DNA of 64,000 nt from an uncultured Planctomycetia bacterium (GTDB taxonomy: Bacteria > Omnitrophota > Gorgyraeia > 2-01-FULL-45-10 > JAHFGN01). The position numbers and the translations under genes are program-made. Each line of letters starts with the position of its first letter. Position 1 is the first letter of the stretch. This document shows, piece after piece, positions 3-64,000 of the stretch. The notes under the pieces were generated by a model. The model ran no database searches, was not told the origin of the DNA, and saw only the letters and a program-made list of their open reading frames with translations. The stretch covers positions 364-64,363 of the forward strand of contig CAYHAE010000001.1 in the NCBI GenBank assembly GCA_964354545.1. The letters run 5' to 3'.

Positions 3-632
3 AAGACTGTTGAGACAGAAGGCGGAGAGGCCCTCCCGTCGTTCAAGAGTACGATCGCGGAGCTCTTCGCATCCTGGCAGGGGAGGAGCATCGTCACGCT
101 TAATATAGAGGCGATCGCCCGCACCATCGCATCGAGGTATCCCGACGCGAAAGATGTTATTGTGAGACGCATGTTTCCCGACAGGTTGTCGGTATCGATT
201 CGCTTGAGGAAGCCCGCTGCCCTCGTCGGCAACGATAAGTATTATCCGGTTGACAGGGACGGCGTCATCTTCCCTCACGCAGACCCTTCTCAATGGCAGA
301 AGCTCCCCGTGATCGTGGGCGTGCACATAAAGGAATCGGACAAGGTCGGTACGAGGTGCGAGTCGGCGTCCCTGCAGATTGCCCTAAAGCTCATCGCCGA
401 AATGGAAAGGTCGAAGATCTCGTCCGACTATATCGTCACCACTATCGACGTGTCGGATCCAAAGAACGTCTCTTTCTTTTTAGAGGACGGCGTCGAGGTC
501 AAAATAGGCCATGAGAATTTCAAAGGGCGCTTAGAGAGCCTGGCCCAAACGTTAAAGAATCCCCGGCTCATTATGAGCCGCATAAAATATCTCGACCTGA
601 GGTTTAAGGACATTGTGATAGGGCAAAAATAG
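3..632 (+). CDS. ftsQ: Cell division protein FtsQ, 3' portion. The gene continues upstream of the window.
   Basis: Frame 3 is open from nt 3 with no stop until 630-632, so the track's M at 162 is internal. The sequence has the FtsQ C-terminal/POTRA-like character. The stop overlaps the GTG start of ftsA by 1 nt. Confidence 0.75.
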   Translation, partial: KTVETEGGEALPSFKSTIAELFASWQGRSIVTLNIEAIARTIASRYPDAKDVIVRRMFPDRLSVSIRLRKPAALVGNDKYYPVDRDGVIFPHADPSQWQKLPVIVGVHIKESDKVGTRCESASLQIALKLIAEMERSKISSDYIVTTIDVSDPKNVSFFLEDGVEVKIGHENFKGRLESLAQTLKNPRLIMSRIKYLDLRFKDIVIGQK

Positions 633-1717
633 TGAAAAAATCTACCGTGATTACGGGGTTGGACATAGGGTCCTCAAAGATCTGCGCCGTATCGGGCGAG
701 GTCGGTTCGGACGGGGCGTGCTCCCTCCTCGGCGTCACCACGGTCCCTTCCCGCGGGGTGGAGCGCGGTACGGTTACCGATCTCAATTCAGCTGTGGAAT
801 CGGTGTCGAGGGCGCTCGAGCGGCTTGAAGAGAGGACCGCGCGGAAGATAGAGGACATTTACGTCAATGTGAGCGGCAGGTCCATAATGGCGCAGAAGGC
901 GCGCGGCATGGTGTCCCTCTCAATGAGCGGCAGGGAGATCACGGAAGAGGATATGAGGCGATGTGTCAACGTTGCGAGCACGATGAGGCTGCCGTTCGAG
1001 AGCGAGATCGTTCATAAGATCACACATTCGTACCTCATAGACGATCAGACTGAATCAAGGAACCCCTTGGGGCTGTACGGCTCACGGCTCGCGGTTGAGA
1101 TCTACGTCATCACCGCGGGCCTCAACCACATACAGAACCTCCACAAGGTCATCAATAACTGCGGCTACGAGGTCAAAGAAGCTGTCTTTTCGGCCCTTGC
1201 GGATACATACAGCCTCTTCGATGACGAAGAGAGGGGAGCGGACGTCGCGCTGGTGGACATCGGCAGCTCCCTCACGGAGATCGCCCTGTGCGAAGAAGGT
1301 GTCGTGAGGTACGTTGAGGTCGTTCCTGCAGGTGCGTCAGACATTCAGGGCAGGCTCGACAAGTGCCCGCCTTTCGACAGTATCGTGGACCGGGTCCGGA
1401 AGGCGTTGGATGACTCCGAAGGACGAGGGCGCGGTAAAGGCTTCCGTGCGAGGTCCGTTATCGTCGCAGGCGGGGGGTCTCTTATGGATGGAGCGGTCGA
1501 GGCCTTTGAGTCGGCCCTCGGGATCCCGGCGAGACCCGGAGTCGTGAAGCACCTCCTGGGGAACGCCTCCTCCGCAGACAGCATTATCGCCACGACAGCC
1601 ATGGGCCTTGTGAGGTACGGGTTCGAGAGACAGACCCCTGGCGTAAGGATCCGGCCAAAGAACCTAGTCAAGCGCCTTTCGTCAACGGTCGTTGACATAT
1701 TCAATAACTACTTCTAG
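632..1717 (+). CDS. ftsA: Cell division protein FtsA (actin-like ATPase).
   Basis: GTG start with the N-terminal phosphate-1 motif GLDIGSSKICAV. The 361-aa length is typical. It sits immediately downstream of ftsQ. Confidence 0.9.
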   Translation: MKKSTVITGLDIGSSKICAVSGEVGSDGACSLLGVTTVPSRGVERGTVTDLNSAVESVSRALERLEERTARKIEDIYVNVSGRSIMAQKARGMVSLSMSGREITEEDMRRCVNVASTMRLPFESEIVHKITHSYLIDDQTESRNPLGLYGSRLAVEIYVITAGLNHIQNLHKVINNCGYEVKEAVFSALADTYSLFDDEERGADVALVDIGSSLTEIALCEEGVVRYVEVVPAGASDIQGRLDKCPPFDSIVDRVRKALDDSEGRGRGKGFRARSVIVAGGGSLMDGAVEAFESALGIPARPGVVKHLLGNASSADSIIATTAMGLVRYGFERQTPGVRIRPKNLVKRLSSTVVDIFNNYF

Positions 1718-1846
1718 GCCCCCGCCATATCCGCTCCCGCGCCTTCGGTCCCCACATATCCGGCACCATTCGACACGAATCAGCGGCGCACGAATGTAAT
1801 ATTATCATAGTTACGTCACAGTCTCCTAAATCCGAAATCCGAATAT

Positions 1847-1874
1847 CGTCCGCCAAAGGCGGACGGATTTTGTG
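1847..1874 (+). terminator. Rho-independent terminator after ftsA.
   Basis: Hairpin CGTCCGCC-AAA-GGCGGACG followed by GATTTTGTG. It is embedded in a larger inverted and decameric TTTCGAATTT repeat region at 1826-1916. Confidence 0.6.
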
Positions 1875-2017
1875 CTTCGGATTTGTTTCGAATTTCGGAT
1901 TTCGAGTTTCGAATTTAAACCTATAGCGGACACCGTAACGCCTCATTTCAAATGGTACGCCACCGGCGTACGAAGGCCTTGCTTTTTACATATATTTGTG
2001 ATAATCTCATAGGTCGC

Positions 2018-2695
2018 ATGATAAGGGAAAATATTGAGGCAGTGAAGGCCCGCATTGCGCGCGCATCGGCGCGGTGCGGCCGGGACCCGCACAGCGTGAA
2101 GCTCGTGTGCGTCACAAAGAATGTGCCGGTCGATGGGATAGAAGAGGTCCTTGCCCTTGGGGTGGAAGATATCGGCGAGAGCCGGGTCCAGGAGGCGGTC
2201 CTCAAACATGGGCGCATCGGGACCAGAGCGGTGTGGCATCTCATAGGGCACCTTCAGACGAACAAGGTGAGGGGTGCGCCGGCGATATTCTCTCTCATTC
2301 ATTCGCTCGATTCCGAAAGGCTCGCGAAGGCCGTGGACAGCGAGGCGCGCACGGGTGGTAAGGTGCAGGACGCATTGGTAGAAGTGAATATATCAGGCGA
2401 GAGCCAGAAATACGGCTTACGGCCTGAAGACGTTCCTGATTTTATCGATACCCTGACCTCCTTTTCCAATCTTCGTGTCGTGGGCCTCATGGGGATAGCG
2501 CCCATCGTTTCACGCCCGGAGCACGCGAGGCCGTATTTCAGGACCCTTAAAGAGATATTTGATGCGGCAGGGGCAGGGCGGATGCCGAACGTTGAGATGA
2601 AGTATCTCTCCATGGGCATGAGCCAGGATTTTGAGGTTGCGATTGAGGAAGGCGCGAACATCGTGAGGATAGGGACGGCGATATTCGGTGAATGA
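2018..2695 (+). CDS. yggS: YggS-family pyridoxal-phosphate homeostasis protein (alanine-racemase-N fold).
   Basis: The sequence MIRENIEAVKARIA...VTKNVPVDGIEEVLALGVEDIGESRVQE...HLIGHLQTNKV is a typical YggS N-terminus. The track ORF starts at 1952, and its 22 extra codons look non-native. Confidence 0.85.
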   Translation: MIRENIEAVKARIARASARCGRDPHSVKLVCVTKNVPVDGIEEVLALGVEDIGESRVQEAVLKHGRIGTRAVWHLIGHLQTNKVRGAPAIFSLIHSLDSERLAKAVDSEARTGGKVQDALVEVNISGESQKYGLRPEDVPDFIDTLTSFSNLRVVGLMGIAPIVSRPEHARPYFRTLKEIFDAAGAGRMPNVEMKYLSMGMSQDFEVAIEEGANIVRIGTAIFGE

Positions 2696-3572: not shown

Positions 3573-3685
3573 TTTTAGCGTATAGCGGTTAGTAAAATGG
3601 AGCTGACGGTAGAGTGATATACCAAGGTTTTTCACTATGCGCGCTATACGCTAAACGCTATACGCTGACCGCTAAACGCTCGATA
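3573..3685. repeat. Short copy of a terminal-inverted-repeat element. The arms TAGCGTATAGCGGTTAGTA and CTATACGCTAAACGCTATACGCT are separated by about 45 bp.
   Basis: The arms are reverse complements of each other. Near-identical arms flank a 440-bp insert at 61751-62194. Confidence 0.5.
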
Positions 3686-14540: not shown

Positions 14541-16301
14541 ATGAGACAGGAGGCACTCACGCTTTTCATCACCATACTGTTCGTCTTTCTTCTGCTGGGC
14601 CTCATCTATGCTCAGGTGCTGAACCACGACGCCTACTACGCTCAATCGCAAAATAATTTCATAAGGATAGTTCCCATCGACGGCCCGCGCGGGAAGATCT
14701 TTGACAGGAACGGCCGCATCATGGTGAACAACAGGCTCTCCCTCGACGTATCGTGCATCTATCAGGAGATAGGCCGCAAGGACCTGTTCATCAAGACGCT
14801 GGGTACGGTGCTTGGTACATCGCCAAGAGGCGTCATTCGGTGTCTGGAAAAGGCGAGCGAAAGGCCCTTTGCCCCCGTGACGCTGCAGGAGGATGTCGAG
14901 AAGGAGCGGGCGATAAGCCTGGAGGAACTCGAACCGGGCGTGCGGGGAGCGGTGATCGAGCCGAAATCAAAGAGGGATTACGTCTACGGATCCGCAGCGG
15001 GGCACATATGCGGATACCTTGGGGAAGTAAATGAAGAAGAGCTCGACCGGCTCAGGGGCTACGGGTACAGGATGCGGGACCTCATAGGCAGGAGCGGCCT
15101 GGAGAAATATTACAATAATTATCTCACGGGTATCGACGGGGGCGAGCAGATAGAAGTAGACGCGAGGGGGAGGCGCGTGAGCCTCCTCGGCCTCAAGGAG
15201 CCAAAGGCGGGGAAAGACCTATGGCTTACCATCGATGCCCGGCTCCAGCAGCTCGCACAGAATCTCCTCGAAGGGAAGACGGGGGCGATCGTGCTGATGG
15301 ACCCGAGGAACGGCGAGGTCCTCGCGCTCGCGAGCAGTCCCGCCTACGATCCCAACACATTTGTGAGGCCGAGAGAATTTGCGGAGCGCATGAGGCTGGT
15401 TGAGGACAGGTCCAAGCCGTTCTTGAACAGGGCGATAGGCGGTGTCTACGCGCCGGGTTCGGTATTCAAGATAGTGACCGCATGCGGAGCGCTCGAAACG
15501 AAAAAGATCTCACGGTATACCCGTTTCACCTGCACAGGAACGTATAAGCTCGGCGGCACTACGTTTCACTGTTGGAAAGAGGGCGGCCATGGGCCCCAGG
15601 ACATCATTGACGCGATCAAAAATTCCTGCAATGTGTTTTTCTATACGGCCGGCAAGAGCCTTGGCGTTGACGCGCTGGAGTCGTACGCGCTGCGGTTCGG
15701 TTTCGGCAAACCAACGGGAATAGACCTGCCTGAGGAGGCCTCCGGCCTTGTCCCCGGCAGGCTGTGGAAGATGCTCGCCAAGAAAGAGGCATGGTACGAT
15801 GGGGAGACGGTCAACTTGGCAATAGGGCAGGGATATCTCATGGTGACGCCGCTCCAGGTGCTCAGGATGACGGCGTGCATCGCGAACGGCGGGAAACTCG
15901 TCCGCCCCTTCATGGTGAAACGCATCGGCCCTGTAGAGGTGGGCAGCTCGCGGCTTCAAGACCTTGGGTTGTCGGCCGAGACCGTAAGGATCATAAAAGA
16001 AGGGATGCTCAAGGTCGTGAACGACGATTCCGGCACGGGCAGGCGCGCGAAAGTGGACGGTCTCGTAATAGGAGGGAAGACGGGAACGGCCCAGAATCCC
16101 CAGGGCGTGCCCCATGCGTGGTTCATCGGGTTTGCCCCAGCGGAAAACCCTTCGTTATCGGTCGTGGTCATGGTCGAGCACGGAGGGAGGGGCGGGTATG
16201 AACCCGCGGAGATCGCCCACGATATATTCAAGGCTGCGCGCGAGATGGGCTATCTGCCCGCTTCAGGTAAGGCAGTATCGGACGTCGCATCGCAGAGGTA
16301 A
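14541..16301 (+). CDS. mrdA: Penicillin-binding protein 2 (peptidoglycan D,D-transpeptidase MrdA).
   Basis: N-terminal TM segment, the PBP dimerisation domain, and transpeptidase motifs SVFK, SCN and KTGTA. Confidence 0.9.
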   Translation: MRQEALTLFITILFVFLLLGLIYAQVLNHDAYYAQSQNNFIRIVPIDGPRGKIFDRNGRIMVNNRLSLDVSCIYQEIGRKDLFIKTLGTVLGTSPRGVIRCLEKASERPFAPVTLQEDVEKERAISLEELEPGVRGAVIEPKSKRDYVYGSAAGHICGYLGEVNEEELDRLRGYGYRMRDLIGRSGLEKYYNNYLTGIDGGEQIEVDARGRRVSLLGLKEPKAGKDLWLTIDARLQQLAQNLLEGKTGAIVLMDPRNGEVLALASSPAYDPNTFVRPREFAERMRLVEDRSKPFLNRAIGGVYAPGSVFKIVTACGALETKKISRYTRFTCTGTYKLGGTTFHCWKEGGHGPQDIIDAIKNSCNVFFYTAGKSLGVDALESYALRFGFGKPTGIDLPEEASGLVPGRLWKMLAKKEAWYDGETVNLAIGQGYLMVTPLQVLRMTACIANGGKLVRPFMVKRIGPVEVGSSRLQDLGLSAETVRIIKEGMLKVVNDDSGTGRRAKVDGLVIGGKTGTAQNPQGVPHAWFIGFAPAENPSLSVVVMVEHGGRGGYEPAEIAHDIFKAAREMGYLPASGKAVSDVASQR

Positions 16302-16813
16302 ATAACGAGGCTCCTATCCGCCTCATGTAAAGCTGTATCGGATGTCGCATCGAAAAGGTAAATAACAAGGCTCCTATCCGCCTCATGTAAAGCTGTATCG
16401 GATGTCGCATTGCGGAGGTAACGCGCGAGGCTCCAGTCCCGACACCAGTGGAAAGCGAAGCGATCCCCGAAATCTTTCAGATTTCAGGGGAGACGTCGCA
16501 TCTCCCTCGACTTCGCTCGGGATGGTTCGTCCCTCGATATAACTCGGGATCGAATCCTGAGCCTGTCGAAGGATTCGAGGGATGGTGAGCAAAGTCGAAC
16601 CAGCAGAGGCAAAGAGCGAGGCTCCTATCCGCCTCCGGCAAAGCTCCATCGGATGTCGCATAGCAGAGGTAAATAACAAGGCTCCTATCCGCCTCATGTA
16701 AAGCTGTATCGGATGTCGCATTGCGGAGGTAACGCGCGAGGCTCCTATCCCGACCCCAGAGGAGTGGCGAAGCGGGATGTCGCATCGCAGAGGCAAAGAG
16801 CGAGGCTCCTATG
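16262..16813. repeat. Tandem array of about five or six degenerate 60-bp units. It runs from the last codons of mrdA to the rodA start codon and is interrupted by a 170-bp structured insert.
   Basis: The unit GTAAATAACGAGGCTCCTATCCGCCTCATGTAAAGCTGTATCGGATGTCGCATCG[CA/AA]GAG appears adjacent at 16300 and 16360, and again at 16610-16800. The copies are all variants of the ancestral mrdA-stop/rodA-RBS junction. Confidence 0.8.
16437..16612. repeat. Hairpin-rich insert (element A) that carries the 27-nt core CCCGAAATCTTTCAGATTTCAGGGGAG.
   Basis: It interrupts one 60-bp unit. Compare the intact unit at 16720-16790. The core at about 16466-16492 is identical to 29608-29634. Confidence 0.5.
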
Positions 16814-17908: not shown

Positions 17909-18357
17909 TGCATAAGTTTTCAGCAACTCTACGGCGTTTACTTTTGTGGTCGCCTCCGCTTGCCGCTCGCTCGGATTCGGCATCCTCGCTCGCTGTGACT
18001 AAAATTTCGATGACTGAATCGCCATAAGGTATCGAAATTTTAGACAGTCGCTCCGGCGACGCACAAAAGTTCCGCCGCTGCGAGAAATGAAAGATACACG
18101 GGAGTGCATGCATGTAATAAAAGGGGCGCGATATTTATTCACCTATAATCACACGCTCAACGCGTAAAGCAGACGGGTGACCAAAAAACGATGCATCGCG
18201 TACAAAATTTTCGACCCATCTCTTGAAACAAATTTTGCACACTGCCCTATAGAGGCAGAGATCATTATCTTTACGTCGAACCCCGAGAGGGGAGATTGAG
18301 AGCGGCAGGACCCGAAAAATTTTTGTATCAGCACACGTCATATAGGTCAAAAAAGAG

Positions 18358-20124
18358 ATGAACGAGAAAATCCTTGAACTGCTACGACATGTTCAAAAGC
18401 CGGGGAGATATATCGGCGAAGAGCATAATGCGGTAAGGAAAGACTGGGCCGGGCCCTATCTTCGCGTCCTCCTGGCTTTTCCCGACATATACGAGGTGGG
18501 GATGAGCTATCTCGGTATGAGGATCCTCTATGGGCTTTTGAATGAGAGGAGCGATGTCCTCTGCGAGAGGGTATTTTCACCGTGGCCCGATATGGAGAAG
18601 CAGTTGAGGGATAACGGGCTTTCGCTTTTCAGCCTCGAATCGAAGAGGCCGATCCGGGAATTTGGGATCATCGGATTCAGTCTCGCGTATGAACTGAATT
18701 ATACCAACGTCCTGAACATCTTGGACCTGGGGCGCATCCCCATGAGATCGCTGGATAGGAGCGATGAGGACCCCCTCGTGATAGCAGGGGGTCCCTCGTG
18801 TTATAATCCGGAGCCGATGGCGGATTTCATCGATGCATTTGTAATAGGAGACGGAGAGGAAGCGATCATCGATGTCGTGGAGGCGTGCAAAGATTTTTTT
18901 GATGACGGGCTGAAGAAGATACGCAACAGGGGAGCGCTCCTGAGGAAGCTCGCGACCTTGGAAGGGGTTTACGTACCGCGCCTCTACGACGTTGGCTACA
19001 ACGGTGACGGGACGGTCCGCGTGTTCACGCCCCTCGAAGGAGCGCCGCCGAAGGTCAGAAAGAGGGCCGTGAAGGATTTAGACGCCGCCTACTATCCTGT
19101 CTCGCAGGTCGTGCCCTACATACAGATCGTACACGACAGGATCATGCTGGAGATAATGCGCGGGTGCGCCCACCTGTGCAAGTTCTGCGAGGCAGGCGCG
19201 ACGTGCCTGCCCAGGCGGGAGCGGTCCACGGAGAAGATCGTTGAGCTTGCCATGAGCGCTTACCGCAACACGGGGTACGAAGAGGTATCTCTCATTTCGC
19301 TCTCGAGCGGCGATCATTCCAGGATACGGGAGATATGCAGGGCCCTCCATGATATCTTCAAGGACAAGGGGGTATCGATCTCCATGCCGTCTCTCAGGAT
19401 CGAGGTGATGACCGAAGAGCTTCCCCAGCTCATTCGCGAGGTGAGAAAGGCAGGCATTACCCTCGCGCCGGAATCCGGAAGCGAGCGGCTGCGAAACGCG
19501 ATCGGAAAGACGATCGCCATTGAGAAATTGTCCTCGACGGTCCTCGAGGCGTACAGATTGGGTTGGGACAGGATCAAGCTCTACTTCATGATAGGACTTC
19601 CGACGGAACGCGACGAGGACCTGCTCTCGACGGTTGACCTCATGGACGAACTGTCGGACGCGCGCAGGGCCCTCGGGAAGGGCCCCGGCCAGATCATCGC
19701 TTCCATCGCGCCCTTCGTGCCAAAGCCGCACACGCCCTTTCAATGGTGGGCGATGGAACCGCAGGCGTCGCTCGATGCGCGGCAGGCTTTTTTGAGAACG
19801 CACGTCCTCCACAGGAGCCGGAACCGGAAGAAGGTGAAGCTGGACTTTCACGATCTCGAGAAGAGCATCCTGGAAGGGGTTTTTTCCAGGGGTGACAGGA
19901 GACTCGGACGGGTGATCGAGAACGCGTACGAATGCGGTGCGCGGCTCGACAGTTGGGGAGAGTTCTTCGAGATCGGCCTGTGGCGCAGGGCGTTTGAGGC
20001 GTGCGGCCTGAACCCTGAATTCTACGTCAATAGGGCGCGGCCATACGAAGAGCTGCTGCCGTGGGATTTTATCGATGTGGGCATTCCAAAGGAAGTTCTT
20101 TTGAAGCGGGCTCAGGAGCAGTGA
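18358..20124 (+). CDS. Radical SAM protein of the TIGR03960 type, with an N-terminal B12-binding-like domain.
   Basis: Radical SAM core with the CAHLCKFCEAG cluster motif (CxxxCxxC). The length and N-terminus (PDIYEVGMSYLGMRILY) match the conserved family that normally partners DUF2344. Confidence 0.85.
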   Translation: MNEKILELLRHVQKPGRYIGEEHNAVRKDWAGPYLRVLLAFPDIYEVGMSYLGMRILYGLLNERSDVLCERVFSPWPDMEKQLRDNGLSLFSLESKRPIREFGIIGFSLAYELNYTNVLNILDLGRIPMRSLDRSDEDPLVIAGGPSCYNPEPMADFIDAFVIGDGEEAIIDVVEACKDFFDDGLKKIRNRGALLRKLATLEGVYVPRLYDVGYNGDGTVRVFTPLEGAPPKVRKRAVKDLDAAYYPVSQVVPYIQIVHDRIMLEIMRGCAHLCKFCEAGATCLPRRERSTEKIVELAMSAYRNTGYEEVSLISLSSGDHSRIREICRALHDIFKDKGVSISMPSLRIEVMTEELPQLIREVRKAGITLAPESGSERLRNAIGKTIAIEKLSSTVLEAYRLGWDRIKLYFMIGLPTERDEDLLSTVDLMDELSDARRALGKGPGQIIASIAPFVPKPHTPFQWWAMEPQASLDARQAFLRTHVLHRSRNRKKVKLDFHDLEKSILEGVFSRGDRRLGRVIENAYECGARLDSWGEFFEIGLWRRAFEACGLNPEFYVNRARPYEELLPWDFIDVGIPKEVLLKRAQEQ

Positions 20125-20193
20125 TCGCCTTATGTAATGATTTGCACCTAATAACGATATAAGATATATGCAATTTCGTTCGTTCAGCGTATT

Positions 20194-20494
20194 TTAGTGA
20201 ATGGTGAATAGTGAATAGGCCACCTTATCCGCCTTCGCAGAAGACCACGGATGTCAACCCGTGGATGAATGCGACCAGATGCTTCGGCGGTCGCCACCAA
20301 GGCTTCGGCGACCGTCCGCCGACGATTCAGTGGCGGACGGATGTCACACCTGACGTGCAGGCGGATACCCCCACCGCCTAGATTTACGAAGTAAATCTGG
20401 TGGGGGTAAAGAAAGGGACCACGGGCGTAAGCCCGTGGGGTTCCATTGGCCATATCGCAAAATTATTCACTAATAACCATTCACTATTCACTAA
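20194..20494. repeat. About 300-bp element with imperfect terminal inverted repeats (left TTAGTGAATGGTGAATAGTGAATAGGCCA, right TGGCCATATCGC...CCATTCACTATTCACTAA). The interior is a string of GC-rich hairpins.
   Basis: The ends are mutual reverse complements. Internal stems include CCACGG/CCGTGG, GTCGCC/GGCGAC, CGTCCGCC/GGCGGACG, CCCCCACC/GGTGGGGG and a GTAA tetraloop hairpin CACGGGC-GTAA-GCCCGTG. Confidence 0.5.
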
Positions 20495-20524
20495 TAATCA
20501 AGGATAGCCAAATTCCAAGCTTGT

Positions 20525-20554
20525 TTGACAAATGCATGTATCTTGAGGTATACT
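20525..20554 (+). promoter_or_regulatory. Sigma-70-type promoter of the GGDEF gene. Layout: TTGACA, 18-nt spacer, TATACT.
   Basis: It sits about 40 nt upstream of the RBS (GGGAGGAG) and the ATG at 20595. It shares the block TTGACAAATG...GGTATACTT with the pilin promoter at 28519. Confidence 0.45.
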
Positions 20555-20594
20555 TAATATGTTTACAGCGGATAACGAGTACGGGAGGAGATGG

Positions 20595-22010
20595 ATGAAG
20601 GCCATTTTTAAGAGACGCTCGACCACCCCCGACGGTTTTGGATATAAATTATTGCTCGCGTTCGGCCTTATGTCGGTGATACCCCTCCTGGTCGCCGTCT
20701 ACCTTGCTATCAACTACGTATTTCCCCAATTGAACACTCTTGTCGATATAAGCGTGGTGCTCAGTCTCTCCGCCCTCATTGCGTTTCTCGGATTTATCTT
20801 TGCACGGAAGGTCATCAAGCCGGTAGTCGATATGGCGGTCATGGCGCGGACGATCGCGAGCGGTCACTACGAAAAACAGATCCACATTTCCGGCAACGAC
20901 GAGATCGCGCAATTGGGTGAATCGATAAATGCGATCACGGCGAAGGTGCGGCTCAACATCGAGGAGATGAAGAGCTACAGCCACAAGGCGCAGGAGCTCA
21001 ACGTGGAGATACACAGGAGGATGGTGGTCCTCGCGGGCCTCCTCCAGGTGAGTGACGTGATATTGAGCAGCACCATGGAATTCAAGGATATCCTCGACCT
21101 GCTTGTCTCGAAGGTCTCCCAGGCGTACGATACGGGGTTCGCGGTATTATTTCTATCGAAGGACTCGCCCGAGCTCTTCTATCCTGTCGCACTCTGCAAT
21201 GCGGAGCACGAAGGGTTCGACAAGATCGTCATACGCGAGGGGAAGGGTTTTCTGGGGAAGCTGCTCTTCTCGAGGTCTATCTTAGTGATCGACTCCACTA
21301 TGCGGGAGACGAAGGAGATTGAGGAGTTCAAGAGGGCGCACCATGTGAAAAACCTCGTTGTATTTCCGATATTCTCCGGGAAGGATACGTTCGGGATACT
21401 CTTCGCCGGCAACCGGCTCGATAATTACAAGTTCTCCTCCGATGAATTCGATATCGTGAAGATCTTCGCGAAGCAGATCGCGATCGCCGTTGAGAATAAT
21501 ATCCTCGTGAGAAAGACGAAGGAGCTCGCCCTGAAAGACGACCTCACGAACCTCTTCAACAGGAATTACATATTCCCGAGGCTCGATGAGGAGATCAAGA
21601 GGGCGCTCTTCTTTCAAAGGCCGTGCTCATTCTTAATGATCAACGTGGACGAGTACAGGAAGTTCAGGGATGACTGTGGAGAGATAGCCTCCGAGGAAGC
21701 GCTCAAGAAGATCGCCGACATCCTGAAGGGCTATGTCGAACCGTTCGGGAAAGCGGCAAGGATCGCGGGTGACGAATTTGCGCTCCTCCTGCCGGAAAAG
21801 AATAAGCGGCAGTCGCTGGAGATCGCCGAAGCGATACGGAGGAAGATCGAATCGTCGAGCTTCGCCGAATCTCAAACCAAGCCCTTGACCGTGAGCATAG
21901 GCGTGAGCGAAAACCCGATAGACGGGTCGACGCAGGAAGATATCGCAAAGAGCGCTGCGGCGTTTCTTGCGCACGCAAAAGCGCAGGGCAAGAACAGGGT
22001 CGTTGGTTGA
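20595..22010 (+). CDS. Membrane sensor diguanylate cyclase with HAMP, GAF and GGDEF domains. The active-site motif is AGDEF.
   Basis: Two TM segments, a HAMP domain, a GAF domain and a GGDEF domain (RIAGDEFALLLPE). I chose the MKAIF start with its strong RBS. Confidence 0.85.
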   Translation: MKAIFKRRSTTPDGFGYKLLLAFGLMSVIPLLVAVYLAINYVFPQLNTLVDISVVLSLSALIAFLGFIFARKVIKPVVDMAVMARTIASGHYEKQIHISGNDEIAQLGESINAITAKVRLNIEEMKSYSHKAQELNVEIHRRMVVLAGLLQVSDVILSSTMEFKDILDLLVSKVSQAYDTGFAVLFLSKDSPELFYPVALCNAEHEGFDKIVIREGKGFLGKLLFSRSILVIDSTMRETKEIEEFKRAHHVKNLVVFPIFSGKDTFGILFAGNRLDNYKFSSDEFDIVKIFAKQIAIAVENNILVRKTKELALKDDLTNLFNRNYIFPRLDEEIKRALFFQRPCSFLMINVDEYRKFRDDCGEIASEEALKKIADILKGYVEPFGKAARIAGDEFALLLPEKNKRQSLEIAEAIRRKIESSSFAESQTKPLTVSIGVSENPIDGSTQEDIAKSAAAFLAHAKAQGKNRVVG

Positions 22011-28546: not shown

Positions 28547-28648
28547 TTATAATGGAACCCAGTATCTGTTAAAGAGAGGGGGTGGAAAGGGGATAATTTA
28601 AAGACTTTTTTTATCGGACCCATTTTTGGGAAAAAGGAGGGATGAGAC

Positions 28649-28984
28649 ATGGTCAGAAGACATAAAAAGGGATTCACGCTTGTTGAAATCATGATAGTCG
28701 TCGCAATTATAGGTCTATTGGCTGCCATCGCTATCCCGAACTTTGTGAGGGCGAGAGAGACGGCAGAAAGAAATGCGTGTATCGCAAACCTGAAGCAGAT
28801 ACAGGGTGCAGTTCAGGTGTGGGCGATCGACACGAGTGCGGGGTCCACTTCAACGCCAACCGCGACATCAGATCTCGCGAACTACATAAAGACATGGCCG
28901 AAGTGCAAAACAACTACGTATGCGATACCCGCAGTCAGTGCAAACCCCGCGTGTCCAACCACCGGCACTGGACACAACCTCTAA
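28649..28984 (+). CDS. Type IV pilin (prepilin N-terminal cleavage/methylation domain), copy 1.
   Basis: Class III signal MVRRHKKG|FTLVEIMIVVAIIGLLAAIAIP with a Cys pair in the C-terminal region. An RBS (AGGAGG) precedes it. Confidence 0.85.
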   Translation: MVRRHKKGFTLVEIMIVVAIIGLLAAIAIPNFVRARETAERNACIANLKQIQGAVQVWAIDTSAGSTSTPTATSDLANYIKTWPKCKTTTYAIPAVSANPACPTTGTGHNL

Positions 28985-29057: not shown

Positions 29058-29180
29058 TTGGGTATTTCGAAAATTATTTAATTATTATCAGAGCACAACA
29101 GCTGTAAATGAAAGGGGGTGAGGACCGGCCTAAAGACTTTTTTTATCGGACCCATTTTTGGGAAAAAGGAGGGATGAGAC

Positions 29181-29516
29181 ATGGTCAGAAGACATAAAAA
29201 GGGATTCACGCTTGTTGAAATCATGATAGTCGTCGCAATTATAGGTCTATTGGCTGCCATCGCTATCCCGAACTTTGTGAGGGCGAGAGAGACGGCAGAA
29301 AGAAATGCGTGTATCGCAAACCTGAAGCAGATACAGGGTGCAGTTCAGGTGTGGGCGATCGACACGAGTGCGGGGTCCACTTCAACGCCAACCGCGACAT
29401 CAGATCTCGCGAACTACATAAAGTCATGGCCGAAGTGCAAAACAACGACGTATGCGATACCCGCAGTCAGTGCAAACCCCACGTGTCCAACCACCGGCAC
29501 TGGACACAACCTTTAA
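29181..29516 (+). CDS. Type IV pilin, copy 2.
   Basis: The protein differs from copy 1 at 2 of 111 residues (T to S and A to T). The upstream leader and RBS are also duplicated. Confidence 0.85.
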   Translation: MVRRHKKGFTLVEIMIVVAIIGLLAAIAIPNFVRARETAERNACIANLKQIQGAVQVWAIDTSAGSTSTPTATSDLANYIKSWPKCKTTTYAIPAVSANPTCPTTGTGHNL

Positions 29517-41408: not shown

Positions 41409-41420
41409 CGGCAAATAACG

Positions 41421-41452
41421 TTCCGCCGGAGGCGGATCCGCCTTCGGCGGAA
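41421..41452. repeat. Perfect 32-bp palindrome TTCCGCCGGAGGCGGATCCGCCTTCGGCGGAA (REP-like). Copy 1 of 2.
   Basis: Self-complementary. A second copy is at 53810-53841. Both are followed by AAAGTGCAA. Confidence 0.7.
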
Positions 41453-41668
41453 AAGTGCAAAGCGTCCGCTACTAAATCATCAGCGGACGCCCGCCAAAGT
41501 TCGCTACTAATGCTTCAGCGAACCCGCTGATGCATTAATGGCGGGCTTTGTGGCGGGCGAAAAACGAAAAACTGTGGTGTCCCTCCGGGACCTAAATGTA
41601 AAGGTCGCGGGAGCGACTCCACCGTTTTGCGTTTTGCGCTTTTAGTTTTTCGCTGGTATGCGCATATC

Positions 41669-51853: not shown

Positions 51854-51931
51854 TTTATACCGTTTGAGAATCGCATCGGCAACGTGTTCCCGAGTTGAGA
51901 TCCCACCTGCTCCCAACGACCGCACTACGCC

Positions 51932-51966
51932 ATACGCAATACGCGATACGCAATACGCAATACGAA
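51932..51966. repeat. Five tandem heptamers ATACGCA / ATACGCG / ATACGAA.
   Basis: Direct reading. It lies in the rsmA-gatC spacer. The motif resembles the CGCTATACGC repeat arms seen elsewhere in the window. Confidence 0.6.
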
Positions 51967-53791: not shown

Positions 53792-53809
53792 CGGCAAATG
53801 CAGGAAGTG

Positions 53810-53841
53810 TTCCGCCGAAGGCGGATCCGCCTTCGGCGGAA
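53810..53841. repeat. Second copy of the REP-like palindrome TTCCGCCGAAGGCGGATCCGCCTTCGGCGGAA.
   Basis: Matches 41421-41452 at 31 of 32 positions. Confidence 0.7.
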
Positions 53842-53879
53842 AAGTGCAATGTGTAAAGTGTAAGATGTGATCAGATACC

Positions 53880-60421: not shown

Positions 60422-60423
60422 GA

Positions 60424-60524
60424 GGTTACATAAGGTTCCATCAGGTTACATAACGTTACATAAGGTTACGAAAGTGGGCAACCTTATGGAACATGAGGGA
60501 ACCTTACGTAACATTATGGAACGT
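60424..60524. promoter_or_regulatory. Periodic array of 13-bp sites with core GTTACATAAGGTT: three direct copies and two or three inverted copies at 10- and 20-bp spacing.
   Basis: Direct sites start at 60424, 60444 and 60454. Inverted sites AACCTTATGGAAC and AACCTTACGTAAC start at 60480 and 60500, with one more at 60514. The array fills the spacer between the two HTH_17 genes. Confidence 0.6.
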
Positions 60525-61014: not shown

Positions 61015-61750
<736 letters not shown>

Positions 61751-61755
<5 letters not shown>

Positions 61756-62194
61756 CGTATAGCGGCTAGTACACTAACATCGCTTATAATATCCATAGTC
61801 CACAGACCACAGACAATAGACCATAGACTGTGAAACGCGGACCATATGCTAAACACCAAAATATCCAGTCACGCATCAGTTTTACGTGTTGAGTGTGTGG
61901 TACGATGAAGGGGTGGACGGATCCAGGGCATAAAAGCGCCCGGGGCCCCCGAGGGGCGGCATTGAGCGGGACGTAAAAATCGCGAGCGGGCACGGATCCC
62001 GAGCCCGCTAAAAGATGTATGCGAGGGAGAGCGAGCGATTTTTCTCGAGTGCAATTTTCCTCGCCGGGGAAAATTGCACGTTCCCGCGAAATGACGACCC
62101 GAGAGGGGGCAAGAGCTTGCAATGAAGGAGGTGGGTGGCATGCTGTATAGGATGCTCAATCCTATACGCTAAACGCTATCCGCTATACGCTATT
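61751..62194. repeat. About 440-bp element flanked by TAGCGTATAGCGGCTAGTA and CTATACGCTAAACGCTATCCGCTATACGCT. It is the long version of the 3573-3685 element.
   Basis: The arms are nearly identical to those at 3573 and 3650. The interior holds a 12-bp-stem hairpin GTGCAATTTTCC/GGAAAATTGCAC. It separates larB from larC. Confidence 0.5.
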
Positions 62195-63367
62195 ATGAAG
62201 ATCGCCTACTTCGACTGTTTTTCAGGCATCAGCGGTGACATGGTCCTCGGGGCTTTTCTGGACGCAGGGCTCGATATCAAGATCTTGCGGAAGGGCCTCG
62301 CGCGGCTGAAGTTGACGGGGTATGAGATCAAGGCAAAGCGGGTGAAGCGCTCGAGCCTCGTGGGAACGAAATTCACGTGCGCCGTGAAAAAGGGCCGGGG
62401 CAACGGCCATTCGCACTCCACCCTCAGCTCCATTCTGGATCTCATCGGGAAAAGCAGCCTTCCCAAGGGCGTCAGGGACCTCTCGAGTCAGATATTCCTC
62501 ACGATCGGCAACGCGGAGGCGAAGGTCCACGGTGAGAGATTGGAAGACGTCCGTTTTCACGAAGTAGGGAACATCGATTCGATCGTCGACGTCGTCGGAT
62601 GCGCGCTCGCGATCGACGCAATGGGGATCGAGAAGTTCTATTCATCCGACGTCGTCCTGGGGAAGGGGTATGTCTACACCCAGATAGGGACCCTGCCTGT
62701 CCCGAGCCCGGCGACGGCGGTCCTCATGAAAGGGGTACCCGTGCGGATGTCGAGGGTAGAGGCGGAGCTCGTGACCCCGACAGGCGCAGGTATTTTGCGG
62801 GGCGTACACGCCCATTTCGCACCCATGCCCGGCATGCGCATGGAGAGGATCGGCTATGGAGCGGGGACCGCGGATTTTGCCGGAACGCCCAACATGCTCA
62901 GGGTTATTGTGGGAGAATCAGGCGACGCTTACGAGCGGGACAGCGTGTACGTCGTCGAAACGAATATTGACGATATGAGCCCGCAGGTCTTCGATTACCT
63001 TTTTGAACGGCTCTTCAAGGTAGGCGCTCTCGACGTCTACGTCACTCCCATCCAGATGAAGAAATCCCGGCCGGCGTTCCAGTTGAGCGTGCTCGCGGAA
63101 GAGCCCTTGTTGGATAAGATCGGCGCAGCGATATTCGAGGAGACGACCTCGATCGGATTAAGGTGCTATAGGGTTGACAGGGTCAAGCTCTCGAGAAAGA
63201 TCGTGAGCGTCCGTACAAAATACGGCAGGATCAAAGTGAAGATCGGCCTCGGCCCCGGACGCATAAGGATCGTCTCTCCCGAATACGAGGACTGCGTGGC
63301 CATCGCGAAGAAGATGAAGGTGCCGCTCAAGGTCGTGTACGACGAGGCGAAGAGGGTTTTGAGATGA
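62195..63367 (+). CDS. larC: LarC (DUF111 nickel insertion protein).
   Basis: MKIAYFDCFSGISGDM and the DUF111 core. I chose the MKIAYF start, which abuts the right arm of the repeat. Confidence 0.85.
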   Translation: MKIAYFDCFSGISGDMVLGAFLDAGLDIKILRKGLARLKLTGYEIKAKRVKRSSLVGTKFTCAVKKGRGNGHSHSTLSSILDLIGKSSLPKGVRDLSSQIFLTIGNAEAKVHGERLEDVRFHEVGNIDSIVDVVGCALAIDAMGIEKFYSSDVVLGKGYVYTQIGTLPVPSPATAVLMKGVPVRMSRVEAELVTPTGAGILRGVHAHFAPMPGMRMERIGYGAGTADFAGTPNMLRVIVGESGDAYERDSVYVVETNIDDMSPQVFDYLFERLFKVGALDVYVTPIQMKKSRPAFQLSVLAEEPLLDKIGAAIFEETTSIGLRCYRVDRVKLSRKIVSVRTKYGRIKVKIGLGPGRIRIVSPEYEDCVAIAKKMKVPLKVVYDEAKRVLR

Positions 63368-63483: not shown

Positions 63484-64000
63484 TGAACCTAGAGATGACA
63501 CCAGCCTTACGCAAGACATTTCGCCCGTCGGTCTATGGTCTATGGTCTTTAGTCTTTAGTCTTGCGTCGCTAGTCGTTGGTCTATGGTCCATAGTCTTTA
63601 GTCTTTTTCTGGCCTTCGGTCTCTCCACCGCACGCGCCGACACCGTCATAAAGCGAGACGGCCGCGAGCTGAAGGGGATCATCGTCGAGGATTACTACGA
63701 CAGGATCGTCCTCTCAACGCCTGACGGCGAGGTCCAGGTCCTGAAGTCCGATGTTCGGGAATTATCGTACGACTCTGAAGAAGACAATCTGATAAAACTC
63801 GGAGACCTCGCAAAAGAGAGGAGCAATTACGAAGCCGCCTACTCATACTATGAAAAAGCATTCAACATGAATCCCAATTCGAAACCCGCAAAAGACGGAA
63901 TGATGTACCTCAAGGGGTTCCTCTTCCGAAAAGAAGAGGCGAAGAAGGAAGAGGACATTAAGCGCCGCACAGAGTTCGAACGATACCAGGTTGCCGGGAT
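63484..64000 (+). CDS. 5' part of a secreted or membrane protein (hydrophobic leader, then a possible TPR-like region). It runs off the window end.
   Basis: ATG at 63484. The leader LWSLVFSLASLVVGLWSIVFSLFLAFGLSTARA precedes a soluble region. The frame is still open at 64000. Confidence 0.45.

Follow-up and report, generated by a model that had tools for sequence, protein, structure and literature searches.

Facing heptamer arrays bracket a cluster of hairpins in an intergenic element of an Omnitrophota genome

Bacterial interspersed mosaic elements (BIMEs), with their repetitive extragenic palindromic (REP) sequences, and BOX elements are built from variable short palindromic modules, usually lie at 3′ ends or between the genes of an operon, and are thought to stabilise or attenuate transcripts. 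Correia elements (NEMIS, neisserial miniature insertion sequences) and enterobacterial repetitive intergenic consensus (ERIC) sequences are bacterial MITEs (miniature inverted-repeat transposable elements) that fold within the mRNA, where RNase III or RNase E cuts them. A different kind of intergenic sequence is built from heptamers, the most over-represented long simple-sequence repeats in bacteria, which have no agreed function. An over-representation of heptamer repeats has been reported for bacteria, among which Xanthomonas has 70-75 GGGAATC pairs that are convergent, are able to form stem-loops and show no link to insertion sequence (IS) elements (PMC4692102). TAACTGA arrays in Beggiatoaceae, Cyanobacteria and Bacteroidetes place stop codons in three frames and often abut start codons (PMC4679880). 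Published heptamer arrays have been discussed as G-quadruplexes or as protein-binding sites in the 5′ untranslated region (UTR), not as clamps around inserts. Here, we analyse a 64,000-nt stretch of contig CAYHAE010000001.1 from an uncultured Omnitrophota bacterium (the window), and in it a non-coding element of ~300 bp at positions 20194-20494, upstream of a GGDEF gene. We conclude that the element is not a riboswitch, and not a conserved RNA gene either. The reading that we favour, with a probability of about one half, is that it is a lineage-specific mosaic repeat, in which arms of heptamer simple-sequence repeats enclose REP-like hairpin modules. Its kind is already known but poorly understood, from convergent heptamer pairs and from modular intergenic repeats (BIME, BOX, Correia); what is new here is the combination of a heptamer pair with modular hairpins, and the size of the clamped core.

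By a convergent heptamer pair we mean two arrays of a 7-nt unit, with at least two copies each, that lie on opposite strands and face each other in an intergenic region. The ends of the element form such a pair: Tandem Repeats Finder (TRF) reports period-7 arrays of TAGTGAA (3.4 copies) at 20195-20218 and of TATTCAC (4.3 copies) at 20464-20493, and the two arrays pair in the predicted fold. A repeat search delimits inverted ends of 25 nt (20194-20218/20470-20494) that are 84% complementary; because both arms are period-7 tandem arrays, alternative registers exist, and a second one (20195-20217/20464-20486) is 91% complementary. What the original prediction had described as terminal inverted repeats (TIRs) are facing heptamer simple-sequence-repeat arrays, not fixed transposon ends. 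On the + strand, the left arm (20194-20222) consists of 3.4 copies of TRGTGAA (TAGTGAA TGGTGAA TAGTGAA TAG) followed by GGCCA, and the right arm (20447-20500) of UGGCC, a 12-nt bulge and 4.3 heptamers of the TATTCAC type (TATTCAC TAATAAC CATTCAC TATTCAC TAATAAT). The left arm carries TAG or TGA stops in all three + strand frames, and the right arm, read on the - strand, covers all three frames with TAG, TGA and TAA; the exit sides of both arms have stops in one frame only. Like the Xanthomonas GGGAATC pairs, the cyanobacterial short tandemly repeated repetitive (STRR) sequences and the TAACTGA arrays, the arms are intergenic arrays of a 7-nt unit in 2-10 copies, over-represented relative to other periods. 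Unlike them, they use the unit TRGTGAA and enclose, in place of a short spacer, a core of 240 nt with multiple hairpins. A literature search for the arm sequence returned no relevant paper.

The element, arms included, is highly structured. The minimum free energy (MFE) of the 311-nt + strand RNA from 20190 to 20500 is -148.2 kcal/mol, compared with -93.1 ± 5.2 for dinucleotide shuffles (z = -10.55; 0/100 shuffles equally good). The - strand RNA (-146.1, z = -8.4) and the same sequence folded as DNA (-85.1, z = -10.6) are also extreme, and four perfect hairpins of at least 8 bp fall within the 300 bp of the element, versus ~25 in the other 63.7 kb. In the MFE fold, the arms pair into an AU-rich closing stem of ~29 bp, of which the left arm forms the 5′ half and the right arm the 3′ half (helices 20194-20208/20480-20494, 20209-20217/20464-20472 and 20218-20222/20447-20451), around three domains on the + strand. 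Domain A (20226-20367) is a multiloop of five hairpins closed by a 9-bp long-range helix, TATCCGCCT/AGGCGGATA. It includes hairpin A1 (20235-20274; UCGCA/UGCGA plus CCACGG-AUGUCAAC-CCGUGG), which is related to the domain C hairpin as a direct repeat (82%), as well as a two-hairpin module (20287-20344) and a small hairpin, AUGUCA-CACC-UGACGU (20341-20356). Domain B (20366-20408) is an interrupted hairpin of 18 bp, made up of UACCCCCACC/GGUGGGGGUA (10 bp) and AGAUUUAC-GAA-GUAAAUCU (8 bp), and domain C (20415-20444) is a GNRA-loop hairpin made up of GGGACC/GGUUCC and CCACGGGC-GUAA-GCCCGUGG. With at least nine helices, the fold bears out the original prediction of imperfect inverted ends around five or more stable stems, one of them a GTAA tetraloop hairpin (CCACGGGC-GTAA-GCCCGTGG, 20419-20438). 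Almost all predicted pairs are Watson-Crick (99/102, 97%) and only 3/102 are G-U. The structure is a set of DNA-level palindromes that can fold equally on both strands, as would sooner be expected of young repeat modules than of an old functional RNA.

The hairpin modules in the core have relatives elsewhere in the window. The two-hairpin module at 20287-20344 comprises h1 (20288-20314), CGGTCGCC-GGCGACCG around an 11-nt loop, ACCAAGGCTTC, that contains UUCG, and h2 (20312-20340), CCGTCCGCC-GGCGGACGG, also with an 11-nt loop. Judged by sequence comparison, this module is a member of a small dispersed family with paralogues in two other spacers, at 41494-41551 and 1744-1797; an nhmmer profile built from the three recovers all of them and no further copy in the 64 kb. 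At the level of single hairpins, h1 and h2 share stems of 7-9 bp and an 11-nt loop with h3 (41462-41490) and h4 (41494-41520). The loop ACYAAKGCTTC is common to h1 and h4, and three stem positions among the four hairpins are altered on both sides, for example from G-C to U-A, as in compensatory change. Searching the window with a covariance model built from h1-h4 adds just two candidates, one at 41521-41551 (E = 0.012) and one at 1843-1869 (E = 0.04). Each is in a spacer that also bears heptamer arrays, and the total comes to six hairpins at three intergenic sites. When the whole core is used as a single nhmmer query, it matches 41426-41500 on the - strand (E = 3e-4). Two resemblances that had been pointed out beforehand are borne out here: the stem shared with the presumed ftsA terminator is that of h2, CCGTCCGCC/GGCGGACGG, of which the same 8-bp stem occurs at 1847-1865, and the related stem near 41463 is that of h3, GCGTCCGCT/AGCGGACGC. 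Our background on REPs is PMC3733652, in which a CGTC-tagged REP has an unpaired terminal CGTC tag, an 8-9-bp stem that begins with A-T pairs, a 4-5-nt loop and a CCA tail. We rejected assignment of the modules to that class: here CGTC lies within the stem rather than forming an unpaired tag, loop length is 11 nt, or 3 nt at 1847, and the leading A-T pairs are missing. A metagenome search with the hairpin-loop consensus TCGCYACYAAKGCTTCRGCGA gave 30 matches, none of which shows the hairpin stems or is related to the element; about two-thirds share near-identical flanks, which we take to be one conserved ExbB/TolQ-like protein-coding gene (AEALVATA stretch).

The evidence that the element is specific to this lineage comes from synteny. 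The gene order mreC-mreD-pbp2-rodA-radical SAM-GGDEF-pilT is kept in three relatives, in which the spacer between the radical-SAM and GGDEF genes measures ~107 bp (P0003 contig), 108 bp (L001) and 205 bp (L122), versus ~470 bp here. The element is missing from all three orthologous spacers, and those of L001 and L122 have neither a heptamer array nor a cluster of GC-rich hairpins; it is therefore lineage-specific, and the simplest reading is that it was gained in this lineage rather than lost in the relatives. The gene upstream of the element (18358-20124) encodes a B12-binding radical-SAM protein of the TIGR03960 type, whose named homologues all come from Candidatus Omnitrophota metagenome-assembled genomes (best non-self match 71% identical). 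Downstream are a gene for a HAMP-GAF-GGDEF protein and then pilT-like, MshEN and pilB-like genes; all genes around the element are on the + strand. Expansion in this lineage affects several spacers of the mreC-rodA-radical-SAM operon. The spacer between rodA and the radical-SAM gene (17909-18357) is 449 bp, versus 126 bp in L001, and is not unusually structured (z = -1.2). The pbp2 and rodA genes overlap by 4 nt in L001 and are separated here by a 60-bp tandem repeat that fills ~510 bp in two blocks, at 16258-16421 (2.7 copies) and 16602-16812 (3.5 copies). Both TATCCGCCT and CGGATGTC occur in the 60-bp unit as well as in the 5′ part of the element core.

The position of the element upstream of a diguanylate cyclase gene, together with its strong structure, is all that favours a cis-acting leader or riboswitch of the GGDEF gene, responding to c-di-GMP or another ligand and read from an upstream start. 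We consider this effectively refuted. A near-consensus promoter on the + strand (TTGACA-N18-TATACT, 11/12 positions matching) lies outside the element at 20525-20554, between it and the GGDEF gene, and the same hexamers precede the orthologous GGDEF genes in L001 and L122, where the element is missing. The element is therefore upstream of the GGDEF promoter and not simply the 5′ UTR of that gene, as the original prediction had held. Its suggestion of a scan for GEMM riboswitches gave a negative result, with no match to GEMM-I/II or to any other riboswitch at E <= 10. The whole window has no Rfam match at gathering thresholds, and a relaxed search of 20000-20700 (E <= 10) returned four chance-level matches (E = 4-9, 11-14 bits), none of them a riboswitch.

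An independent structured RNA encoded on the + strand, freed from a longer transcript by RNase III cutting of the AU-rich closing stem, would account for the multi-domain fold and its z-score, and the ~29-bp stem is a plausible RNase III substrate by analogy with rRNA processing stems and Correia elements. The + strand carries all three special loops, two of them C(UUCG)G and one GUAA, and its fold is 6.4 kcal/mol better than its own mirror on the - strand. We nevertheless regard a small-RNA gene as unlikely. No Rfam family matches, searches of phages and plasmids, proteins and metagenomes revealed no homologue, a promoter scan detected no promoter upstream of the element, and close relatives do without it. 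A proportion of 97% Watson-Crick pairs would be unusual for an old functional RNA, and the interiors of orthologous elements of this kind change quickly (see below). Coding capacity is not indicated either: a Pfam search matched none of the three open reading frames (ORFs) of the element, which measure 89 aa (- strand), 56 aa and 41 aa (both + strand), and the longest of them, which spans the element, has no homologue among 5.8 billion proteins. Such regions can yield extreme folding z-scores without being conserved RNA genes, a point of relevance to annotation.

The heptamer arms are part of a pattern that extends across the window. TRF reports 15 period-7 rows, where 20 dinucleotide shuffles average 1.4 and reach no more than 3, an enrichment of ~10-fold; 13/15 lie outside genes, and the arrays form AT-rich islands in a genome of 56% GC. 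The syntenic 9.7 kb of L001 contain one marginal heptamer array. Five sites in the window follow one plan, with a left array, one or more GC-rich hairpins and a complementary right array, and at all five the arrays pair as a closing stem in the MFE fold. Besides the element itself (20194-20500; TRGTGAA/TTCACYA arrays, 240-nt interior), these are 1824-1916, 3575-3680, 41556-41655 and 61753-62194, so that the facing-array architecture is built from at least four different heptamers in this genome. At 1824-1916 (+ strand), ATCCGAA and TTCGGAT, TTCGAAT arrays clamp a terminator-like hairpin, CGTCCGCC-AAA-GGCGGACG; its stem (1847-1865) lies ~130 nt past the ftsA stop codon, is followed by ATTTTGTG and scores terminator-like (1846-1866). 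This part of the window (632-2695) holds ftsQ and ftsA and then not ftsZ but a yggS-like gene for a pyridoxal phosphate-binding protein (Ala_racemase_N family). At 41556-41655, CGAAAAA and GTTTTGC arrays enclose ~50 nt; the clamped hairpin stands beside three hairpins of the h1-h4 family in a spacer (41409-41655, + strand) that is the most structured in the window (z = -11) and includes a perfect UUCG/GAAG palindrome. That spacer separates an aldehyde-dehydrogenase-family gene from a cytidylyltransferase-like gene (PF01467), which from its N-terminus we take to be NadD.

The two remaining sites share their arms. TAGCGTA and TACGCTA arrays enclose ~45 nt between proC and yggT (3575-3680) and a GC-rich structured interior of ~390 nt on the + strand between larB and larC (61753-62194); the arms are near-identical (TAGCGTATAGCGGTTAGTA vs TAGCGTATAGCGGCTAGTA) and the interiors unrelated. 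In the latter case, the first TAG of the left array is the stop codon of larB (AIRC family) and the right array ends at the ATG of larC (Ni_insertion family, E = 1e-134; MKIAYFDCFSGISGDM...), with no Shine-Dalgarno sequence between that array and the ATG. The clamp fits exactly from one gene's stop codon to the next gene's start codon, and this array, like the TAACTGA arrays (PMC4679880), abuts a start codon. The larB/larC element (61750-62196) has an MFE of -180.8, its interior also holds a CCACAGA x4 array, it has no Rfam match, and the core of our element shows no significant similarity to its interior (61776-62161). The window presents heptamers as paired clamps around structured inserts in otherwise conserved operons. 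Lone heptamer arrays also occur: CGCAATA x6.3 and TRGTCTW x9 (51921-51964 and 63530-63606, the second near the end of the window) have no inverted partner in view.

The arm motif TTAGTGAATRGTGAATRGT is widespread. A genome scan gave at least 120 matches, and the hosts among the matches listed include Bacteroidota, Atribacterota, Cyanobacteria, Mesorhizobium, Firmicutes and Planctomycetota. Many of the listed arrays have a complementary array 10-400 nt away, with interiors unrelated in length and sequence. Among the 95 listed arrays with complete flanks, 30 have a convergent partner (5′-GTGAAT...ATTCAC-3′) and none a divergent one. Since convergent and divergent pairs would form the same hairpin, hairpin formation alone fails to explain this polarity. 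A property that does go along with the polarity is the placing of stop codons: three copies of the TAGTGAA unit suffice to put TAG and TGA stops in every frame, and in the convergent arrangement these three-frame stops face entry from either side. Clustering of the proteins encoded near 120 of the listed arrays identified no recurrent family, except for one common to nine loci. Two orthologous Atribacterota spacers (L025 2228-2386 and L102 3931-4307) keep the right arm, in four versus two copies, around entirely different interiors, indicating that such regions turn over quickly. Atribacterota spacers more generally (L025, L102, L092, L111, L116, L084) are mosaics of heptamer arrays (TAGTCGT, TAGTGAA, TAACCAG...) and also carry short GC hairpins common to several genomes. 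In Petroclostridium sp. X23, both copies of a 95% identical duplication of 1.66 kb (L091 1-1641, L114 2608-4268), with tandem units of ~80 bp inside, stop precisely at an (ATTCACT)3 array.

The strict outside-to-inside polarity across phyla is what the ends of a transposon would show, and the Petroclostridium duplication, ending as it does at such an array, points the same way. One could read the element as a MITE of the classical type: a non-autonomous transposon that landed upstream of the GGDEF promoter, with the heptamer arrays as multi-site transposase-binding ends. It has 25-nt inverted ends, albeit made of heptamer arrays, a size of ~300 bp, no ORF of the transposase kind, three orthologous spacers without it, and TA dinucleotides flanking GTGAAT...ATTCAC. 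In addition, it resembles Correia and ERIC elements in its size (100-300 bp), its inverted ends of ~25 nt, its position beside a promoter, its long hairpin and, if our inference about the transcript is right, its co-transcription. However, those elements occur in tens to hundreds of near-identical copies with fixed TIRs and, for Correia, TA duplications. Searches for further copies came back empty: blastn-short and nhmmer detected no second copy in the 64-kb window, and distant blastn searches of phages and plasmids gave only matches of 27-51 nt (E = 0.03-0.9), none a copy of the element. The search for a target-site duplication yielded nothing interpretable, with only TA/TTA flanks that are part of the palindrome, and relatives' spacers too diverged to reveal an empty site; as the TA flanks are self-complementary, they are indistinguishable from an extension of the inverted repeat. 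Use of at least four heptamers for one architecture, unrelated interiors of ~45 and ~390 nt between TAGCGTA arms, arm copy numbers that vary between sides and between orthologues as slippage would have it, and the want of a gene family recurring near the arrays all speak against transposon ends. We therefore consider a MITE improbable. Three options had been put forward in the original prediction: a MITE, an independent RNA gene and a regulatory platform. What stands of it is that the unit is discrete, insertion-like and non-coding, has inverted ends and is not the GGDEF 5′ UTR; no Rfam match, no second copy in the 64-kb window, phages or plasmids and no interpretable target-site duplication go with it.

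A more speculative interpretation of the polarity, to which we attach low odds, is that facing stop-phased heptamers, (TAG-N4)n, are a functionally constrained device used across phyla, amounting either to an unrecognised class of insulator that works in both directions or to the termini of a mobile element of an unrecognised kind. As an insulator, the arrays would without exception face inward, and a ribosome or polymerase coming from either direction would meet three-frame stops and then a long clamp stem; the arrays would enclose fast-changing structured inserts, and the 300-bp element would be among the examples with the largest cargo. If the polarity reflects selection, this would be a general way for bacteria or selfish DNA to insulate inserts from translation and from neighbouring promoters. 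The wider pattern of convergent polarity across phyla, stop-phased units and stop-to-start clamps may carry some weight.

The element might instead act at the level of DNA, with the heptad arrays as sites for a protein that reads 7-bp repeats or with the palindrome extruding as a cruciform. The right arm (20464-20500) stops 25 bp short of the -35 hexamer, and, if the GGDEF transcription start is placed by the promoter hexamers, its array lies ~60-100 bp upstream of that start; the DNA fold has z = -10.6, and the arrays are AT-rich islands. The omega repressor of pSM19035, a ribbon-helix-helix protein, reads WATCACW heptads, which the heptad ATTCACT may be said to resemble. We find such a platform quite doubtful, however: the same promoter serves the relatives, which lack the element, the heptamers within one genome are of several different kinds, the arrays have no linked regulator gene, and the GC-rich hairpin core would be left without a role.

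We return to the mosaic repeat, the interpretation that we prefer. Like enterobacterial BIMEs and REPs and the BOX elements of S. pneumoniae, the element is intergenic, non-coding and modular, and its terminal modules pair, as boxA and boxC do. Unlike those elements, with which it shares no sequence relation, it has arms that are simple-sequence-repeat arrays. It may have originated by slippage of heptamers, together with duplication or insertion of REP-like modules, in a spacer that was formerly short (107-205 bp in the relatives). No intrinsic terminator was found on the + strand of 19900-20700, with one weak site on the - strand; since genes are on the + strand throughout and no terminator precedes the element, it is probably the 3′ tail of the mreCD-pbp2-rodA-radical-SAM message. 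A compact fold in such a tail could act as a barrier to 3′-to-5′ exonucleases, offer a long double-stranded stem to RNase III, or both. The outward-facing three-frame stops would halt ribosomes entering from either side and keep them from melting the fold, and the clamp stem would shield the GGDEF promoter, which lies just downstream, from the insert.

Several points weigh against the mosaic repeat. Co-transcription and any RNA-level role of the element are inferences. None of the element's + strand hairpins is followed by a T-run, which makes it no obvious intrinsic terminator. That the two UUCG loops and the GUAA loop all belong to the + strand could equally indicate a dedicated RNA. The search for copies spans 64 kb of the genome, and a multi-copy family of full-length elements could exist. 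Finally, the module similarities are short: in Smith-Waterman comparisons, the core scored above 299-300/300 shuffles against the related spacers and against 16258-16812, a weak line of evidence given that 1/4 control regions reached a similar score.

Other repeats were seen in the window. A repeat of ~40 nt, GTTCCGCCGRAGGCGGATCCGCCTTCGGCGGAAAAGTGCAA, which contains a 14-bp perfect palindrome, occurs twice (41420-41460 and 53807-53848), each time just past the end of a gene; at the second copy, an AAAGTGT heptamer array follows at 53841. At 60423-60522, after a small ORF, 4.7 copies of a 10-bp repeat, AGGTTACATA, are followed by an inverted AACCTTAYGGAAC repeat, an arrangement that by its sequence looks like an iteron or operator. 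Lastly, 28590-28776 and 29132-29320 are near-identical copies of a ribosome-binding site and gene start (MVRRHKKGFTLVEIMIVVAIIGLLAAIAIPNF...); the encoded N-terminus presumably belongs to a type IV pilin or pseudopilin, and the similarity of the two copies suggests tandem duplicated genes.

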